Virus record (IMG/VR): IMGVR_UViG_3300045988_146023
Source of the DNA: a virus
Direction: 5' to 3' (one strand)
DNA: 40,172 bases
This document shows positions 1-38,353 of the stretch, piece after piece; positions within the stretch are counted from its first letter, which is position 1, and each line of letters begins with the position of its first letter. The notes under the pieces are model-generated. The model was not told the origin of the DNA. It was given only the letters and a program-made list of their open reading frames with translations, and made no database searches. The translations under genes were made by a program, and so were the position numbers.

Positions 1-99
1 CACAGAGAACGGGCAAAGGGGTTACAGTAAGTTTGCGGAAGCCTACTGTACCCCCTACTATAACATACAGTAGGAGGAAAATGCAATGATAAAACGGAA
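1..99 (+). repeat. Terminal direct repeat, copy 1 (identical to 40074-40172)
   Basis: Base-by-base comparison: cacagagaacgggcaaagg...gataaaacggaa is present at both ends. Confidence 0.97.
22..77. promoter_or_regulatory. TACAGTA boxes and a 9-bp inverted repeat overlapping the integrase SD
   Basis: TACAGTA occurs at 23-29 and 66-72, and inverted at 44-50. CCTACTGTA (42-50) and TACAGTAGG (66-74) form a perfect inverted repeat whose right arm overlaps GGAGG (73-77). Confidence 0.4.
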
Positions 100-1147
100 A
101 GATGGATTGTGGCAGGAGCGAATCTCTCTGCCGGGTATGGCAAAGCCCAAGTATTTCTATGCCAAGACCCAGAAGGAATTGAAGAAAAAGGTTGCTGCAT
201 GGAACCAGGATCAGGCGGCAGGGAAAACCTTTGAAGCCTGCGCCGATTCCTGGGACCGGTGGCATGAAGGGCAGGTGTCCTACAACGGGGCGGAAGCATA
301 TCGAGCCGCGATGAAGCGGACGAAGGAACAATTCAAGGGGCGCAGGATTGACGATATCCGGCCTGATGAAATAGACGCTTACATCCGATATCTGGCGGGG
401 AGGGGCTATGCTCGGCGGACGGTGCAACTCTATCTGGATATGCTGCGGATGATCTGGGACTATTCCATTGTCCAGGGGTGGACTACGTTCAACCCGTGCG
501 GGGCGGTAAAGCTGCCTAGTGGGCTGCCCAGGGGCCGGAGAGAGATGCCCAGCGACGAGCAGATAGAGCGCGTCAAGGCCGGGCTATTTCTCGACTTCGG
601 GTTATTCCCCTATTTCCTCCTGCATACTGGGATGCGTCGAGGGGAACTCCTGGCGCTGCGCTGGGAGGATATTGATCGGGAGCATAAGCTGATAACCGTA
701 AACAAGGCGGTTTATTTTGCTGGGAACACGCCCCAGATTAAAGCGCCGAAAACGGATAGCGGACGGCGGGAGATCGTCCTGCTGGATGCTCTGGCTGCCG
801 TTCTTCCAAAGGGTGGCAAAGGCTATGTGTTCGGCGGGGAGAAACCGCTGACAAAAATGCAGGTGCGGAAACGATGGCAGAGATGGTGCAGGGAGGCAGG
901 GCTGGCGACAGAGGAGGGCGTGGCTATGATCACGCCACACCAGCTGCGACACGCCTTCGCTACCATTCTGTTTGACGCTGGCATTGACGTCAAGGTGGCG
1001 CAAGAGCTGCTGGGACACTCCAGTATACAGGTCACGCGGGACATCTACACCCACATCCGAAAGAGCCGGATGGAGAACACGGCGGAGACGCTGAACAAGT
1101 ATTTATCTGGTGGTGCGTGTAAAAATAATGTAATTGAGCTCGCATGA
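86..1147 (+). CDS. int: Tyrosine recombinase / phage integrase
   Basis: 353 aa. The C-terminal catalytic region HQLRHAFATILFDAGIDVKVAQELLGHSSIQVTRDIYTH fits the R..H-x-x-R..Y pattern. SD GGAGG lies 8 nt upstream, and a tRNA fragment lies immediately downstream. Confidence 0.93.
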   Translation: MIKRKDGLWQERISLPGMAKPKYFYAKTQKELKKKVAAWNQDQAAGKTFEACADSWDRWHEGQVSYNGAEAYRAAMKRTKEQFKGRRIDDIRPDEIDAYIRYLAGRGYARRTVQLYLDMLRMIWDYSIVQGWTTFNPCGAVKLPSGLPRGRREMPSDEQIERVKAGLFLDFGLFPYFLLHTGMRRGELLALRWEDIDREHKLITVNKAVYFAGNTPQIKAPKTDSGRREIVLLDALAAVLPKGGKGYVFGGEKPLTKMQVRKRWQRWCREAGLATEEGVAMITPHQLRHAFATILFDAGIDVKVAQELLGHSSIQVTRDIYTHIRKSRMENTAETLNKYLSGGACKNNVIELA

Positions 1148-1371: not shown

Positions 1372-1401
1372 AGCCGCCCCGGGAGCTTATCCGGAGCGGC
1401 T
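1372..1401. terminator. Hairpin terminator downstream of the leftward accessory operon
   Basis: AGCCGC (1372-1377) pairs with GCGGCT (1396-1401), with an inner CCGG/CCGG pairing. The flanks are T/A-rich on both strands. Confidence 0.55.
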
Positions 1402-1405
1402 TTAT

Positions 1406-2167
1406 TTATGGGTTTTCGTCTGTTTTTTCAAGCTCTTCCAAAAACGGCTGAAAGTATTTCTCTTCTGCCCGCTTCCTGGCTTTCGCGGCGTCATCGATGT
1501 TTCTGTAGTGGCCGAGATGGTGGAAAGTTCCCTTGAATTTGATATATGCTTCCCACTTTTTGTCTCTTTTGCTCCAGGACACACCACGCACGCCGCTTGT
1601 ATTGGTGACTGGCGGCTTATCACCAAGGGACGAAGTTCGGGTCCCCTCTATTGTGTCTGAGGGTGTAGGCCTACTCTCTCGGTTTAGGCATCCGCAGGAT
1701 CTTGTATTGCCGCTCTTGAGATACCTTGTGGGGACGTCTATTTCATTCCCACAATCACACCGGCAATGCCAACAAGCGTTTCTTCCTCTCATCTCATCAA
1801 GCAGATAAAGAGCAGTGAGACGGCCAAACCGCTGGCCGGTTAAATCCTCACGCCCATGCTTGCCGCACGTTTGGGTGTTGCCGGATCTGAGATCCTTCGC
1901 AGTTGCAAACACCTCGCGCCCGCAATCGCACAGGCACCGCCACACAATTTTTTTGTTCTTCCGCCGGTCCGTCGGCTCTATTGCAGTCAGCATCCCAAAC
2001 TTTTGACCGGTTATATCTACCTTAGCGCCCACAGTTATTCGCCTCCCCTCGATTTCAATCCACGCTCTCCTTGCGGAGAGCGACACACCCCGATTTTCTC
2101 CGTGCCGCTTGACAACGCGGATGGCCGGGATGGACTTCCCGGCCAGTTCCGTATTCTTTTTATTCAT
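1406..2167 (-). CDS. DNA-binding protein with two Cys-rich repeats and a C-terminal AP2-type domain
   Basis: Repeats are GQKFGMLTAI..WRCLCDCGREV..LRSGNTQTCG and GQRFGRLTAL..WHCRCDCGNEI..LKSGNTRSCGC. The C-terminus GVRGVSWSKRDKKWEAYIKFKGTFHHLGHY..DAAKARKRAE resembles AP2. The start is moved to ATG 2167, which overlaps the upstream stop as ATGAATAA. Confidence 0.7.
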   Translation of the reverse strand: MNKKNTELAGKSIPAIRVVKRHGENRGVSLSARRAWIEIEGRRITVGAKVDITGQKFGMLTAIEPTDRRKNKKIVWRCLCDCGREVFATAKDLRSGNTQTCGKHGREDLTGQRFGRLTALYLLDEMRGRNACWHCRCDCGNEIDVPTRYLKSGNTRSCGCLNRESRPTPSDTIEGTRTSSLGDKPPVTNTSGVRGVSWSKRDKKWEAYIKFKGTFHHLGHYRNIDDAAKARKRAEEKYFQPFLEELEKTDENP

Positions 2168-2339
2168 CTGGATCAGGGGCAAACTGGTCCAGGGTTGCCT
2201 GAAAATCTGGATCCAGTTCCAGGTAGCGCTCAAGGAATTCGGTGTTGGTGCAGGGGGCGAGTTCAGCGTGGACCGCCTCCCGGATGTCATCATTCATCAA
2301 CTCCACGATCTGGTCCCAGTAGTTGTTGTAAGTTTTCAT
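2160..2339 (-). CDS. Hypothetical acidic protein (59 aa)
   Basis: The ORF has the SD AAAAAGGAGGG upstream of ATG 2339 and is translationally coupled to the next gene. Confidence 0.6.
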   Translation of the reverse strand: MKTYNNYWDQIVELMNDDIREAVHAELAPCTNTEFLERYLELDPDFQATLDQFAPDPDE

Positions 2340-2392
2340 TTGGTGGCCCTCCTTTTTAGGATTATAGCATGGTTTCTCTGACTCGGTCAATG

Positions 2393-2563
2393 TCATTCTA
2401 CCTCGTATCCGTTGGCGCCCATAAAATACTCACGGCCCAGGGTCGTTACAAACGCGCTGTCACAGTCTCCGTCTGTTTCGATCTCCATCGTGTAGACTGT
2501 GGCGGCGTGGCCGCCTGCAAAGGCAAGGGCGGCGGTGAGCAATACGGCAATGAATGCTTTCAT
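2393..2563 (-). CDS. Small secreted protein (56 aa) with an N-terminal signal peptide
   Basis: MKAFIAVLLTAALAFAGGHAA is followed by a polar domain. SD GAAGGAGGAG lies upstream of ATG 2563. Confidence 0.6.
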   Translation of the reverse strand: MKAFIAVLLTAALAFAGGHAATVYTMEIETDGDCDSAFVTTLGREYFMGANGYEVE

Positions 2564-2585
2564 GTTTGGCTCCTCCTTCTGGCTC

Positions 2586-2750
2586 TCATCGGGCGGGTAT
2601 AAACTTAATCTCTTTGGCAAAAGCAACGAGCGCGTCTCTTGCTGCCTCGTGTGCCTCTTTGAGCAGTGGGCGGTCCGGGTTGTTGCTCTTTAGCTCGAAG
2701 AGCTCGCATTCTACCTCGGAGATCAGGTCAAGCAGTTCTTTCATTGTCAT
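2586..2750 (-). CDS. Hypothetical protein (54 aa)
   Basis: MTMKELLDLISEVECELFELK... is preceded by SD AAAGGA. It is the real part of the longer 233-aa low-complexity ORF in the track. Confidence 0.5.
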   Translation of the reverse strand: MTMKELLDLISEVECELFELKSNNPDRPLLKEAHEAARDALVAFAKEIKFIPAR

Positions 2751-2765
2751 AGTATTTTTTCCTTT

Positions 2766-2833
2766 CTGCCCTGCCATCGTCAGCACTGGTGGGGCGGTTC
2801 CAGTGGACCCCCGAAGGGGTTTCGGCTGTTGGG
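2766..2833 (-). ncRNA. Type II hammerhead ribozyme (HH-B)
   Basis: On the minus strand: AACAGCC-GAAA-CCCC-UUCG-GGGG-U-C^CACUGG-(10-nt loop)-CCAGUG-CUGACGA-U-GGCAGGGC. Core positions are CUGACGA 2783-2777, GAAA 2823-2820, U16.1 2807 and C17 2806. Loop I GCCC (2795-2792) is complementary to GGGC (2771-2768). Confidence 0.8.
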
Positions 2834-2865
2834 TGAGTCCCTGCTTTTCATGTCCTGCCGCCTCC

Positions 2866-3369
2866 TTACGCTGTAGCGGTTTCGATGTCCTGGGATCCAC
2901 GGGAGCGGAATGCCTGACTGCCGTACTTGGTGCGGATTTCCGCCATGGAGGACTTGCCACGGTACCAGCGGGAACCGGCCTCGGCGTGGTGCCAGTACCA
3001 CTTGGCTTTATTTTTGGACCACTTGCAGCCAGCTGCCTTGAGCTTGTCCTTGTTGGCCTTGGTGTTGCCGCCGATCCAGAGCCAGGACCCGCAAAGCTCG
3101 ATCTCAAGGCCGTCCAGGCGGAGCAGGATGTCCAGGATCTGCCGGAACTCTTCGGCGGTCTCGGTGGTGGTCTTCGTTTTGCCGGTGGTGTCGGCCTGGG
3201 CCTGGGCGTTGTGCTGGCGCTTGAGGATCTCAAAGAGGGCGTCGTGTTCGTTGTTGATCTCCTGCATTGCCTCGGTGCTGCCGCCACAGTCTGGGTGGTA
3301 CTGCATGGCCAGACGGCGATAGGCCTTCTTGAGCTCGTCCAGGGTCTTGATATTCTCGAAGTATTTCAT
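2866..3369 (-). CDS. J-domain (DnaJ-like) protein
   Basis: The N-terminus LDELKKAYRRLAMQYHPDCGG..EAMQEINNEHDALF contains the HPD tripeptide. The C-terminal domain is Trp/Lys-rich (CGSWLWIGGNTKANKDKLKAAGCKWSKNKAKWYWH). SD GAGAGGAG is present. Confidence 0.85.
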   Translation of the reverse strand: MKYFENIKTLDELKKAYRRLAMQYHPDCGGSTEAMQEINNEHDALFEILKRQHNAQAQADTTGKTKTTTETAEEFRQILDILLRLDGLEIELCGSWLWIGGNTKANKDKLKAAGCKWSKNKAKWYWHHAEAGSRWYRGKSSMAEIRTKYGSQAFRSRGSQDIETATA

Positions 3370-3389
3370 GGGGTGTTCTCCTCTCTGTT

Positions 3390-3467
3390 GCGTCGGCCTG
3401 CCTCATCAGCGCCGGGAGGCCGTTCCTCGGCGGACGCCCTGAAGGGCGTTTCGGCTGTTTACCACGC
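3390..3467 (-). ncRNA. Type II hammerhead ribozyme (HH-A)
   Basis: On the minus strand: AACAGCC-GAAA-CGCCC-UUCA-GGGCG-U-C^CGCCG..CGGCG-CUGAUGA-GGCAGGCCG. Core positions are CUGAUGA 3409-3403, GAAA 3452-3449, U16.1 3434 and C17 3433. Loop I CGGCCU (3422-3417) is complementary to AGGCCG (3399-3394). Confidence 0.85.
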
Positions 3468-3684
3468 TACCACCCAGGGAAGCCCGCTTCCGTTCCATCT
3501 GTTGTGGTAGATTGCCGCAGTCTTTATGTCTAGGTATGTAAATTTGCTCTTTGCGCGTTTTCCGCCACAGTAAACGGGTATGCCTTGCTTTTTTAAGTTC
3601 ATTTACCTTTTTCAGCGCGTTGCGCCGATCTTCGTACCATGCGAAATTATGAACCATATCCACGGTAATAGTGTTATGCGCCAT
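3406..3684 (-). CDS. Hypothetical basic protein (92 aa) whose 3' end overlaps HH-A
   Basis: SD AAGGAGGAG lies upstream of ATG 3684 (MAHNTITVDMVHNFAWYEDRR...). The last ~25 codons run through the ribozyme, and the stop codon is the UGA inside CUGAUGA. Confidence 0.55.
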   Translation of the reverse strand: MAHNTITVDMVHNFAWYEDRRNALKKVNELKKARHTRLLWRKTRKEQIYIPRHKDCGNLPQQMERKRASLGGSVVNSRNALQGVRRGTASRR

Positions 3685-3727
3685 TGTATTCTCCTCCTTG
3701 CCCTCGTAACCTCCGGGGCGGGGGTAA

Positions 3728-3868
3728 TTATTTAACTTTTGATTCCTTCCCACAAGGGTTTTTGGGGGAAGATACGGAACAACCATACTTTTTGCACCAA
3801 TCATAAGTTCCGTACTTTGTTTTCCTAGTGGTATTGTAGGGGCAATTTTTGCAACCGCAAGTTTTCAT
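3728..3868 (-). CDS. Small Cys-rich protein (46 aa)
   Basis: MKTCGCKNCPYNTTRKTKYGTYDWCKKYGCSVSSPKNPCGK. SD GGGAGGG lies 4 nt before ATG 3868. It is the first gene of the leftward operon. Confidence 0.55.
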   Translation of the reverse strand: MKTCGCKNCPYNTTRKTKYGTYDWCKKYGCSVSSPKNPCGKESKVK

Positions 3869-3922
3869 TTTTCCCTCCCGGCCTGTGGCCTGTCGTGGTT
3901 GGCTGTCGTTTAGCTTGGCTTT

Positions 3923-3952
3923 ATGGTAGCACGTTACAACGTGCAATGTCAA
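3923..3952 (-). promoter_or_regulatory. Leftward promoter with a palindromic operator in its spacer
   Basis: On the minus strand: TTGACA (3952-3947), an 18-nt spacer, then TACCAT (3928-3923). The spacer contains the perfect palindrome GCACGTT-AC-AACGTGC (3929-3944). Confidence 0.55.
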
Positions 3953-5901: not shown

Positions 5902-5936
5902 AGACCTCCCTGGGAATGGCTGGGGAGAAGGACCGA

Positions 5937-5982
5937 ACGGGGTCAACTTGTTGGAATTTCCGACAGGTTGGCCCCGTTTTTG
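5937..5982 (+). terminator. Strong rho-independent terminator 35 nt upstream of terL
   Basis: A 14-bp stem (5937-5950 with 5964-5977, two G-U pairs) followed by TTTTT (5977-5981). Confidence 0.8.
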
Positions 5983-6016: not shown

Positions 6017-7477
6017 ATGAGCAAGGTCCAGAAGAAGGACGTGGTCTGGGACCCGGGAGAAGCCAACGCGAAGCAGAAGCTGTTCTATCTCTCCCGAACA
6101 ACCTATACCGCTTATGGCGGGGCCAAGGGCGGCGGCAAGACCCATGCCGTTCGCATCAAGGCTGTGGGTGGGGCCATTGCCAACCCGGGCATCAAGATCC
6201 TCATCATGCGGCGGACCTATCCAGAATTGGAGGAAAACCACATCCGGCCCATTGTGAAGATGGTGCCGCCTGCGCTGGCCTCCTACAACGCCACCACCCA
6301 CCTGATGACCTTTCACAACGGGAGCACCATCAAGTTTGGCCATTGGAGCGGCGACGCCTCGGAGGATGAGTACAACGGCCTGGAATATGACTGGATTTTC
6401 ATCGACGAGGCCACGCAGTTTTCCGAGCGGAGTTTCAATTTCCTGGGCGGCTGCTTGCGCGGCGTGAACCAGTTCCCAAAGCGGATGTACCTCACCTGCA
6501 ACCCCGGCGGCGTCGGCCACCGGTGGGTGAAGCGGCTGTTCATTGACCGGCAGTTCAAGCAGAACTGCGACAACCCGGAAGAGAACGAGAATCCGGAGGA
6601 TTATACCTTCATCCCGGCGACGGTGGAGGACAACTACCACCTGATGGCCTCTTCCCCGGGGTATGTGCGGATGCTGGCGAACATGCCGGAGGATAAGCGG
6701 CGGGCCTACCGGTACGGCGATTGGAATGCCATCGGCGGGAACTTTTTCCCGGAATTCTCTACCGCGACCCACGTTGTGCAGCCGTTTCGCATCCCGGAGC
6801 ATTGGCAGCGGTACCGCAGTTTCGACTACGGCCTGGACATGTTCGCCTGCTTCTGGTGGGCGGTAGACGAAGACGGAAGGTCTTGGTGCTACCGGGAATT
6901 CACCCACAAGGGCCTCATTGTCAAAGAGGCGGCAGAGAAGATCCACGAGTTGACGCTGCCGGGAGAGCATGTTTCTGCCACCTATGCCCCGCCGGATATG
7001 TGGAGCCGGCAAAAAGACACCGGCAAGACCATGGCGGAGGTGTTCATGCTGAACCAGGTTGGCCTGATCCGGGCGGACAACAACCGGGTGCAGGGACACC
7101 TGATGATGAAGGAAGCGTTGGCCCCAAGGCCGCTGCGCGACCCCTATGTGCAGGCTATGTTCCGCCGGGAAGACGGGACGGCGCCGGACAAGCTGCCGGG
7201 CCTTATGTTCTTCGATGCCTGCAAAGAGGTTATCGGGGATATCCAGGATATCCAGGCGGACGAGAAAAACCCCAACGACTGTGCCAAGGACCCCCACGAA
7301 GTGACCCACACGGTGGACGGGGTGCGGTATTACTGCATTTCCCGTGTGCTGCCTGCACAGCCGGAGAAGGACGAGAAGAAGGTTGTCCTGTATGACGATG
7401 ACGAGGACAGCATGGAGAGCTACGAGGAGTTCATGGTAGGAAGCGGGGCCCCCAGCCCCAGCTATCTTGCGTTGTGA
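6017..7477 (+). CDS. terL: Terminase large subunit
   Basis: 486 aa. Walker A is YGGAKGGGKTH and Walker B is WIFIDEATQF. The C-terminal half is nuclease-like with conserved acidic residues. Confidence 0.92.
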   Translation: MSKVQKKDVVWDPGEANAKQKLFYLSRTTYTAYGGAKGGGKTHAVRIKAVGGAIANPGIKILIMRRTYPELEENHIRPIVKMVPPALASYNATTHLMTFHNGSTIKFGHWSGDASEDEYNGLEYDWIFIDEATQFSERSFNFLGGCLRGVNQFPKRMYLTCNPGGVGHRWVKRLFIDRQFKQNCDNPEENENPEDYTFIPATVEDNYHLMASSPGYVRMLANMPEDKRRAYRYGDWNAIGGNFFPEFSTATHVVQPFRIPEHWQRYRSFDYGLDMFACFWWAVDEDGRSWCYREFTHKGLIVKEAAEKIHELTLPGEHVSATYAPPDMWSRQKDTGKTMAEVFMLNQVGLIRADNNRVQGHLMMKEALAPRPLRDPYVQAMFRREDGTAPDKLPGLMFFDACKEVIGDIQDIQADEKNPNDCAKDPHEVTHTVDGVRYYCISRVLPAQPEKDEKKVVLYDDDEDSMESYEEFMVGSGAPSPSYLAL

Positions 7478-38082: not shown

Positions 38083-38353
38083 ACGCAGCGAACAGGTGAT
38101 CACAAAATGGGAGATGATTGCCATAGAGGGTATTCTCAGTAGCCTATTTCGCTTCCCCGTACCCGAGGCCGGTAAACCAACCCGGCTTTCCGATGCGTTG
38201 AAACACAGGCCGTTGCTGTGAGTGAGGATGCAAGGGGGATAGAAGCATGGTGACTCATGCGTCTATGGTTCAAACCAAACCGTAGTTTGCACCCTACATC
38301 GGGTTCAAGAACGGAAGAAGATGTCCGGGAGTCACACCGGGCATTTTCTTTGC

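Follow-up and report, generated by a model that had tools for sequence, protein, structure and literature searches.

A predicted type II hammerhead ribozyme between two cistrons of a viral minus-strand operon

The window considered here is the whole stretch of 40,172 nucleotides (nt) of the virus record IMGVR_UViG_3300045988_146023 (IMG/VR), in which a gene for a J-domain protein is flanked on its own strand by two hammerhead-like sequences, HH-A upstream and HH-B downstream. HH-B lies between the J-domain gene and a gene for a protein of 54 amino acids (aa), which raises the question of whether it is a functional self-cleaving ribozyme and what such a ribozyme would do between two cistrons. 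Its sequence, two covariance models and the comparison with related viruses suggest, with a probability of about 0.8, that HH-B is a functional type II hammerhead embedded in a minus-strand accessory operon.

Anatomy of HH-B and its place in the hammerhead family

Read on the minus strand, the element consists of the following parts, given with the Shine-Dalgarno (SD) sequence that follows it.

2766..2830, minus strand: HH-B, a complete type II hammerhead of 65 nt, from the helix II 5' strand to the end of the pseudoknot tail (sequence, Rfam RF02276 and our own model R1)
2824..2826, minus strand: helix II 5' strand GCC, partner of GGC at 2775-2773
2821..2823, minus strand: core G12 A13 A14, read as GAA in the sequence and aligned to the Rfam model
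2807..2820, minus strand: helix III hairpin ACCCC-UUCG-GGGGU, with A15.1:U16.1 (2820:2807), four G-C pairs and a UUCG tetraloop
2805..2806, minus strand: predicted scissile bond between C17 (2806) and C1.1 (2805), in the context GUC/C with the cut at the slash
2784..2805, minus strand: helix I hairpin CACUGG-AACCGCCCCA-CCAGUG, with 6 base pairs (bp; 2805-2800 with 2789-2784) and a 10-nt loop I
2777..2783, minus strand: core C3 U4 G5 A6 C7 G8 A9 (CUGACGA), read in the sequence and aligned to the core of the Rfam model
2776..2776, minus strand: extra U at the A9/G10.1 junction, read in the sequence
2773..2775, minus strand: helix II 3' strand GGC (sequence and family parse)
2768..2771, minus strand: pseudoknot tail GGGC, pairing with loop I GCCC at 2795-2792
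2760..2765, minus strand: SD sequence AAAGGA of the 54-aa gene, abutting the pseudoknot tail; the ATG is at 2750

Helices I and III are closed by loops and helix II is open, being built from the 5' and 3' ends of the element, which is the connectivity of a type II hammerhead. A preliminary description of this locus had claimed the same topology, and it is read from the sequence here as well. Its minus-strand string from 2833 to 2766 (beginning with CCC-AACAGCC-GAAA, with AACCGCCCCA in loop I, and ending with AGGGC-AG) was matched base for base on re-reading, and the coordinates that it gave for the core, the GAA, the A15.1:U16.1 pair, C17, helix I, the extra U and the SD sequence were all correct. 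The cleavage site that it had placed after C2806 coincides with the site predicted here, where H17 is C and not G, as it is C in 110 of the 114 parsed family members. The strands AACAGCC and GGCAGG around helix II are indeed identical in HH-B and HH-A, and the 3' tail does run straight into AAAGGA. Helix II itself (family columns 5-7 with 109-111) is paired in 99.4% of cases across the family, and a stem III of 5 bp, the length found in HH-B, occurs in 9 of the 114 parsed members. The pseudoknot, with 4 bp, stands at the short end of the family range. HH-B thus shows every feature of sequence and structure of a type II hammerhead that can be examined in silico, and misses only the score cut-off of Rfam.

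The Rfam model concerned, Hammerhead_II (RF02276), has a gathering score of 37 bits. A search at a permissive threshold matched HH-B from end to end with 32.3 bits (E = 5.7e-5 in a local search, and 0.0075 when the entire window is searched with all 4227 Rfam families). In this HH-B differs from the RF02276 members that lie above gathering; the shortfall is explained by the 5-bp stem III with its tetraloop, the 4-bp pseudoknot, the 10-nt loop I, which the model treats as a local deviation, and the extra U. Close homologues obtain similar scores, 34.5 bits for the hammerhead of Faecalibacterium phage Mushu and 36.3 bits for that of L004 (L numbers designate related viral contigs and loci). A covariance model built without HH-B from four type II hammerheads, namely HH-A, that of Mushu and two of Dulem virus 39 (model R1), gives HH-B 57 bits, with E about 1e-12. 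The Rfam score under the gathering threshold could be taken for a chance likeness to the hammerhead consensus in GC-rich intergenic DNA. This explanation is effectively refuted by the R1 score, together with the changes among close relatives and the pairing in the subfamily described below; the E value for the whole window against all families, the compensatory changes in conserved homologues, and the position and orientation of HH-B, which are typical of the family, also contradict it.

U2776 is the only deviation of HH-B from the core consensus and falls within the natural range of the family. The statement in the preliminary description that insertions after A9 occur in nature proved sound. 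A U at the A9/G10.1 junction is also found in Mushu and in the hammerhead of Dulem virus 39 that scores 53.7 bits with Rfam, and a pattern scan of viral contigs for the U form returned at least 120 matches. Among the first 120 stretches listed by a second scan, in which the inserted base was left free, this base is U in 115, A in 3, G in 2 (of ambiguous register) and C in none, and members with the extra U reach 87.8 bits with R1. Within the HH-B subfamily the insertion goes together with helix II GCC/GGC, and its absence with GUC/GAC. In a model hammerhead, a U at this position was reported to raise the rate 3-4-fold, an extra A to slow cleavage moderately and a C or G to be detrimental (De la Pena and Flores 2001, as cited in PMC3705267); the base census of natural insertions agrees with these mutational data. 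The extra U is a common natural form and no argument against activity. A reading of U2776 as U10.1 opening helix II was rejected because it produces U-C and G-G mismatches, whereas the bulge reading keeps 3 bp. A parallel from outside the family is the (+) hammerhead of CChMVd, whose extra A10 sits between A9 and G10.1, a core position identical to that of the insertion in HH-B (PMC3705267). Unlike HH-B, this viroid ribozyme is of type III and belongs to a circular RNA replicon; the base that it naturally carries at the insertion is A instead of U, and the contacts between its loops do not form a Watson-Crick pseudoknot.

In 2011, Perreault et al. described type II hammerheads that possess this pseudoknot and form clusters around individual prophage genes close to integrases (PMC3088659). 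HH-B shares with these prophage and phage members of RF02276 the core CUGANGA...GAAA...UH, the short open helix II and the Watson-Crick pseudoknot between loop I and the tail, as well as the location in a prophage operon near an integrase and the presence of several ribozymes flanking single genes of varying identity. The class, the pseudoknot, the prophage context, the clustering around variable single genes (including an anti-restriction gene) and the co-occurrence with twister-type ribozymes are already known. The case for HH-B is well supported, though nothing out of the ordinary: it is very probably a true type II hammerhead of the kind known to punctuate phage operons.

Homologues and covariation

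When the region 2400-3900 was compared with phage genomes by blastn, similarity was confined to the two ribozymes. HH-B matched phage Mushu (79% identity over about 70 nt) and HH-A matched Dulem virus 39, and each of these targets matches Hammerhead_II and lies, like its counterpart in the window, between genes on the sense strand. The homology between HH-B and HH-A asserted in the preliminary description holds only at the level of the family; the nearest relatives of HH-B, however, are the Mushu hammerhead (MG711460.1, 2237-2307, unannotated) and the loop/tail subfamily to which it belongs (AACYGCCCCA/AGGGC), found in many gut phage contigs. HH-B has the loop I, the tail, the extra U and the 6-bp helix I length of this subfamily, and like its members it lies between two same-strand genes with an SD sequence after the tail. 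The Mushu element differs by a 6-bp pseudoknot (CUGCCC:GGGCAG), a 6-bp stem III, other pairs in helix I and unrelated flanking genes.

Closer relatives are viral contigs encoding J-domain proteins 95-99% identical to that of the window, in which HH-B stands directly downstream of the gene. Two haplotypes occur, CACUGG/CCAGUG with C at N7 and UACCGG/CCGGUA with U at N7. All five substitutions between them are neutral for the structure, consisting of the helix I changes C:G to U:A and U:A to C:G plus N7, the sole core position at which the haplotypes differ. In L008 the helix II strand GGC is changed to GGU, which keeps a wobble G-U pair. Purifying selection on HH-B is shown, at the level of sequence, among these close relatives.

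At a greater distance, the HH-B subfamily was delimited by loop I, core and tail alone, with no filter on pairing (19 distinct sequences); a first selection that had been filtered on pairing was circular and was replaced by this version. Helix I pairs at 6 of 6 positions in all 19 sequences, against a permuted mean of 4.33 +/- 0.21, its first position is represented by all four pair types, and UC precedes it in every sequence. In the alignment of 123 hits to the family, pairing is intact in 99% of cells, and covariation reaches a score of 0.653, whereas shuffles give 0.142 and slid partners no more than 0.087. This alignment was fitted to the model, and for that reason independent parses were run on 114 members and on the 19-sequence subfamily. 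The covariation among relatives that the preliminary description had wished to see examined was found, in the form of compensatory changes in helix I and covariation in helix III and in the pseudoknot.

The pseudoknot also differs between the two elements of the window, being GCCC:GGGC in HH-B and CGGCCU:AGGCCG in HH-A, and its covariation had been claimed from this pair. The longest complement between loop I and tail averages 4.56 bp across the family, with many different sequences, against 2.82 +/- 0.10 bp for permuted tails, which bears the claim out. GCCC/GGGC is a recurrent pseudoknot type, and pseudoknots of 4 bp are found in 27 of 90 non-redundant family members.

In L009-L016, R1 also gave weak matches (E about 0.02) some 1.5 kb upstream on the other strand; they were set aside as chance since they have no CUGANGA core. 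A scan of a genome collection with the J-domain protein yielded two loci only and added little for covariation; one of them, from a Clostridiales metagenome-assembled genome (MAG), points to the likely host group. Within the HH-B subfamily a core CCGAUGA, with U4 changed to C, recurs in hammerheads that are otherwise perfect and that always carry helix II GUC/GAC and no extra U. They are found at

L102:2282-2351, L081:3324-3393, L043:5815-5886, L040:10077-10150 and L042:336-408, and in L128, L111, L130 and L143: CCGAUGA-core hammerheads.

The core of L060:5673-5742 is CAGAUGA. As U4 is normally invariant, the CCGAUGA ribozymes may be weakened or differently tuned.

The predicted operon and the proposed role of cleavage

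The surroundings of HH-B comprise the following features.

2866..3369, minus strand: J-domain protein gene, 167 aa, the upstream cistron (Pfam DnaJ, E = 1.2e-8; phrog_15863, E = 3.9e-50)
2586..2750, minus strand: 54-aa cistron, downstream, replaced by unrelated genes in close relatives
3392..3456, minus strand: HH-A, type II hammerhead preceding the J-domain gene, with a predicted cut between 3433 and 3432 (RF02276, 47.3 bits, above gathering)
2160-2396, minus strand: AcrIC5-like open reading frame (ORF) of 78 aa (Pfam PF22147 AcrIC5, anti-CRISPR, E = 3e-10, 40.5 bits against a cut-off of 27)
3923..3952, minus strand: promoter-like site, a consensus match only, that could drive the minus-strand operon
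1372..1401, minus strand: terminator-like hairpin ending the minus-strand operon (11-bp stem with 9 G-C pairs, then a T-rich tail)
2780..2851, minus strand: possible small ORF (sORF) of 23 codons (MKSRDSPNSRNPFGGPLEPPHQC), with SD sequence AAGGAGG at 2867-2861 and ATG at 2851, which crosses HH-B and ends at the UGA of the core

On the strand of the J-domain gene, HH-A lies before it and HH-B after it, both of them between cistrons. The predicted operon runs from small ORFs through HH-A, the J-domain gene, HH-B, the 54-aa gene, a 77-aa gene and the AcrIC5-like gene, two cistrons downstream of the 54-aa gene, to an HNH/AP2 gene; it sits between the integrase (86-1147, plus strand) and the packaging genes (plus strand). 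A scan of the minus strand from 3923 to 1401 found no further terminator-like site, and none between the genes flanking HH-B, so that HH-A and HH-B probably belong to a single operon. The 78-aa AcrIC5-like ORF had no hit in PHROGs, and searches of PHROGs and Pfam with the 54-aa, 77-aa and upstream small ORFs returned no family match and no function. The operon that the ribozymes punctuate may represent a cluster of anti-defence or accessory genes. Of the ORFs upstream of the J-domain gene, the longest (3406-3804, minus strand) enters HH-A by 51 nt, and a shorter one (3459-3602, minus strand) ends 3 nt before it; neither has a family match in Pfam or PHROGs.

The order stop codon, ribozyme, SD sequence, start codon is family-wide. 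In the 114 parsed members the upstream stop codon lies at a median of 2 nt before helix II, the SD sequence (GAAAGGA/GAAAGGG) directly follows the tail and the start codon comes at a median of 18 nt after it. HH-B conforms to this layout on its 3' side, where its SD sequence is shared by relatives up to the point of sequence divergence; the 5' side is looser, the stop codon of the J-domain gene lying about 40 nt upstream.

From this arrangement, the most likely role of HH-B would be the self-cleavage of the operon transcript between C2806 and C2805, separating the J-domain cistron from the downstream cistron. Hairpins III and I would form while the transcript emerges, after which the 3-bp helix II would close, and pairing of the loop I GCCC with the GGGC of the 3' tail would dock helices I and II. 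The co-transcriptional cut between C2806 and C2805 would leave the J-domain mRNA with a 3' end formed by the CCCC-UUCG-GGGG hairpin of stem III and a 2',3'-cyclic phosphate. The downstream mRNA would begin with a 5'-OH buried in the helix I hairpin, followed by the remainder of the ribozyme, the SD sequence, which is unpaired in the predicted fold of this 3' cleavage product, and the start codon. Each cistron would thereby receive its own structured ends, and its stability and translation would be independent of its neighbours. That the genes share a transcript, that cleavage takes place and that it bears on the stability and translation of the mRNAs is what we infer from the sequence and its context.

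A comparable principle is used in the synthetic insulator RiboJ, in which a self-cleaving hammerhead placed just upstream of the ribosome-binding site strips off upstream RNA and leaves a 5' end protected by a hairpin. RiboJ is engineered and derives from a type III hammerhead of a satellite RNA, with an added hairpin; its likeness to HH-B is that of a hammerhead before a ribosome-binding site, the natural role of HH-B being one that we infer. Among natural systems, hammerheads arranged in tandem in prophages are active both in vitro and in vivo, and it has been proposed that they process transcripts into single-gene mRNAs (PMC3088659). Type II hammerheads near phage genes were also active in vivo in Desulfovibrio vulgaris, as detected by cyPhyRNA-seq (PMC8782182). 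The latter belong to the class of HH-B, lie near phage-like genes, two of them adjacent to each other, and demonstrate that such predicted elements cleave in cells; their host phylum and their sequences differ from those of HH-B.

The presence of two ribozymes around one gene could also mean that HH-A and HH-B act as a pair and excise a 627-nt J-domain RNA (3432 to 2806), the ends of which would form a chimeric hammerhead and be ligated, by the ribozyme or by RtcB, to a circular mRNA. The possibility was raised by Perreault et al. (PMC3088659), and the identical helix II strands would suit it, as type II hairpins are self-contained and the 5' half of HH-B and the 3' half of HH-A would need only GCC/GGC to associate. 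The J-domain gene of L014, between two sub-gathering twister-P1 matches, offers a similar arrangement. Close relatives nevertheless have a single ribozyme, HH-A being absent from L004, L005, L007, L008 and L022 and an intact HH-B from L006, array neighbours can have incompatible helix II strands (e.g. GCC/GGC beside GUC/GAC in L102), and circular or spliced products were searched for by Perreault et al. and not found (PMC3088659). A circular mRNA is accordingly a very remote prospect.

The possible sORF suggests another function, in which HH-B would be a translation-sensitive switch: ribosomes translating from ATG 2851 to UGA 2782-2780 would unfold the ribozyme, so that cleavage would report or depend on translational coupling from the J-domain gene. 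A strong SD sequence, AAGGAGG, overlaps the stop codon of the J-domain gene with the ATG 9 nt downstream, relatives have kept the SD core as well as the ATG, and both substitutions in the 5' part of the sORF are synonymous. These are only two informative substitutions, though, and the helix I changes between haplotypes alter the peptide (PL..QC to LP..RY), which indicates that RNA pairing and not coding dictates them. Most family members moreover have an upstream stop codon abutting the ribozyme and no such sORF. The switch is held to be highly unlikely, and cleavage between cistrons is retained as the preferred role.

Different ribozyme classes and mosaic junctions at J-domain loci

At or near the position occupied by HH-B, homologous J-domain loci harbour other ribozymes. 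In seven of them (L010-L013, L015, L016 and L021; 3518-3567, plus strand) the J-domain gene is immediately followed by a canonical type III hammerhead with a 2-bp helix II, the arrangement CUCCGUC/CGCCGG-loop-CCGGCG-CUGAUGA-GC-AAGA-GC-GAAA-CGGAG (cut at the slash) and variation in the loops only. In L012 it scores 32.4 bits with Rfam Hammerhead_3 in a 131-nt search, against a gathering score of 48.5, and Rfam scans of whole loci at E <= 1 missed it. Twister-sister ribozymes follow J-domain homologues in L017 (3553-3633, 84.6 bits) and in the Clostridiales MAG locus L146 (3010-3090, 87.4 bits). In L014 the two sub-gathering twister-P1 matches (2910-2970 and 3522-3573, plus strand; 61.2 and 52 bits) flank the gene in the same layout as HH-A and HH-B, and a twister-P5 is found in L020 (3652-3715), beyond an additional downstream ORF of 32 codons. 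Ribozymes of the twister, twister-sister and type III hammerhead classes (reviews: PMC6765202, PMC6155905) thus take the same place as HH-B between stop codon and SD sequence downstream of homologous J-domain genes. Their folds and active sites are unrelated to those of HH-B, and they are analogues, not members of its family. That unrelated folds sharing only their chemistry occupy one slot is the strongest comparative argument for selection on RNA cleavage, and argues that cleavage itself is what selection maintains there.

In L017, the stretch between the stop codon of the J-domain gene and the twister-sister (3505-3552, plus strand; UAAGCCGAAAUGG...) matches the conserved start of type II hammerheads (UAA-GCC-GAAA). 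It could be the remnant of a replaced hammerhead or a coincidence.

Several observations weigh against an active HH-B with a processing role. No ribozyme is present at the site in L018, which has only a hairpin, or in L024, which has a terminator and a promoter, and L006 lacks the 5' two-thirds of HH-B, so that cleavage there would be dispensable in some relatives. The deletion in L006 (3470-3560, aligned to 2849-2786 of the window) removed the GAAA, helix III, the cleavage site and the 5' strand of helix I; the last 30 nt of HH-B are kept at 100% identity, along with an intact HH-A homologue upstream. With 32.3 bits against 37, HH-B is missed by the default Rfam scan that finds HH-A. Its stem III is short (5 bp) and its pseudoknot has only 4 bp, against 6 bp in Mushu, and Perreault et al. 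saw a loss of about 20-fold on shortening one pseudoknot from 6 to 4 bp (PMC3088659). The possible sORF would send ribosomes through the ribozyme. More generally, the benefit of such processing is not established for any phage ribozyme (PMC6765202, PMC6155905).

Folding predictions add a further point on this side. All three hammerhead helices are contained in the minimum free energy structure of the isolated element (65-72 nt), whereas competing pairings take over with 30-70 nt of native flank and in stretches of 81-201 nt, and the fold energy of the 81-nt stretch 2840-2760 is no better than that of shuffled sequences (z = +0.77). Folding with native flanks was consequently dropped as support, since the flanked sequence neither finds nor backs the ribozyme. 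It was not weighed against the ribozyme either because the pseudoknot and the tertiary core lie outside the folding model, and the thermodynamic evidence, such as these models provide, is neutral. The hairpin CCCC-UUCG-GGGG was also considered as an intrinsic terminator and rejected, there being no U-tract after it and no terminator reported there by the terminator scan.

Part of these observations would be expected if HH-B were a decaying, catalytically dead relic. To the sub-threshold score can be added the pseudoknot, weaker than that of Mushu through a U to C change in loop I that leaves 4 bp instead of 6, the additional core nucleotide, and the demonstration by L006 that the element can be deleted. 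A relic would also gather disruptive changes, however, and the substitutions among close relatives are all compensatory or at N7, with every core nucleotide intact. The extra U is the dominant natural insertion and is present in members of 53.7 bits (Rfam) and up to 87.8 bits (R1), and pseudoknots as short as that of HH-B are frequent, as seen above. Decay is on this evidence decidedly unlikely, and a functional hammerhead remains the preferred reading.

The ribozyme edges also coincide with joints in the DNA. The homology block that contains the J-domain gene and HH-B ends right after the tail and the SD sequence, and at least three unrelated genes follow it; other blocks end at the 3' edge of HH-A, and that of L006 begins at the 5' edge of HH-A. 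For ribozymes from different contigs that are at least 80% identical, 198 pairs have no 400-nt flank in common, 37 pairs have one and 17 have both. L004, L005, L007 and L022 contain, in place of HH-A, a different conserved segment of about 60 nt (about 2930-2985, corresponding to 3456-3389 of the window). It has a hairpin GGGGC-AUCCUCAAAA-GCCCC with a CCUC in the loop that is complementary to the SD sequence of the J-domain gene (GAGG); an Rfam scan at E <= 1, run for L004 alone among these four, gave no match.

These joints would fit a role of HH-B mainly at the DNA level, in which the conserved ribozyme, with its SD sequence, would serve as a shared linker for the recombination of phage cassettes, cleavage being secondary or ensuring independence from context. 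The breaks in homology at the three ribozyme edges, the unrelated genes behind the same HH-B and SD sequence, the ribozymes as sole DNA similarity to Mushu and Dulem virus 39, and the near-identical ribozymes with unshared flanks are all in its favour. On the other hand, mosaic joints are usually intergenic anyway, and the junction counts come without a ribozyme-free intergenic control. A pure DNA linker would need neither compensatory changes nor a covarying pseudoknot and could not be replaced by unrelated ribozyme classes; the shared stretches are also short (about 65 nt). A mainly DNA-level role is unlikely, and the ribozyme-edge breakpoints are a lead as recombination joints, not a finding.

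A tentative combination of both levels can be envisaged, in which a type II hammerhead and its trailing SD sequence would form a portable intercistronic joint, with an interchangeable ribozyme class. Such a joint would insulate accessory or anti-defence-type cistrons at the RNA level and would mark, perhaps promote, cassette-swap junctions of gut phages at the DNA level. If true, this reading would explain the near-identical ribozymes between unrelated genes, the homology blocks ending at ribozyme edges and the five ribozyme forms in the slot downstream of one J-domain gene family; it is at present speculative.

A general description of the phenomenon dates from 2011, and what is added here is local, namely an orthologous slot with interchangeable ribozyme classes, a tight grammar of stop codon, ribozyme, SD sequence and start codon, and breakpoints at ribozyme edges. 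Default Rfam thresholds miss real hammerheads of this kind (HH-B, that of Mushu and the type III element of L010-L021), and the ribozyme density in gut phage operons is therefore underestimated. The J-domain locus is also a compact natural experiment, in which a type II or type III hammerhead, a twister-sister, a twister, a plain hairpin or a terminator follows homologous genes and close relatives differ only as to which of the ribozymes they possess or have lost. This variety makes the role of self-cleavage in phage operons approachable with matched constructs, and does not answer the question by itself.

Arrays of type II hammerheads on the same strand, with 7-10 hits and about one per gene pair, were seen in L050 (584-8217, plus strand), L032 (6220-9599, minus strand) and L064 (160-5114, minus strand). 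That of L050 includes an ArdC anti-restriction protein (ArdcN, 2.5e-36, with a zincin domain) and a Ku protein (1.2e-35). Other structured RNAs of the window lie on the plus strand. A gut-2 RNA (RF02990, 47 bits, above gathering) at 5903-5950, just upstream of a large-terminase-like ORF (6017-7477), has counterparts in L004-L008, L010 and L022. A sub-threshold match to FuFi-1 RNA (RF02986) occupies 38185-38350 and scores 37.2 bits (E = 1.2e-4), the gathering score being 59.6. Finally, a tRNA-like match at 1146-1215 (29.4 bits, gathering score 29) begins at the last bases of the integrase ORF (86-1147), and could correspond to a tRNA or part of a tRNA at the attachment site.

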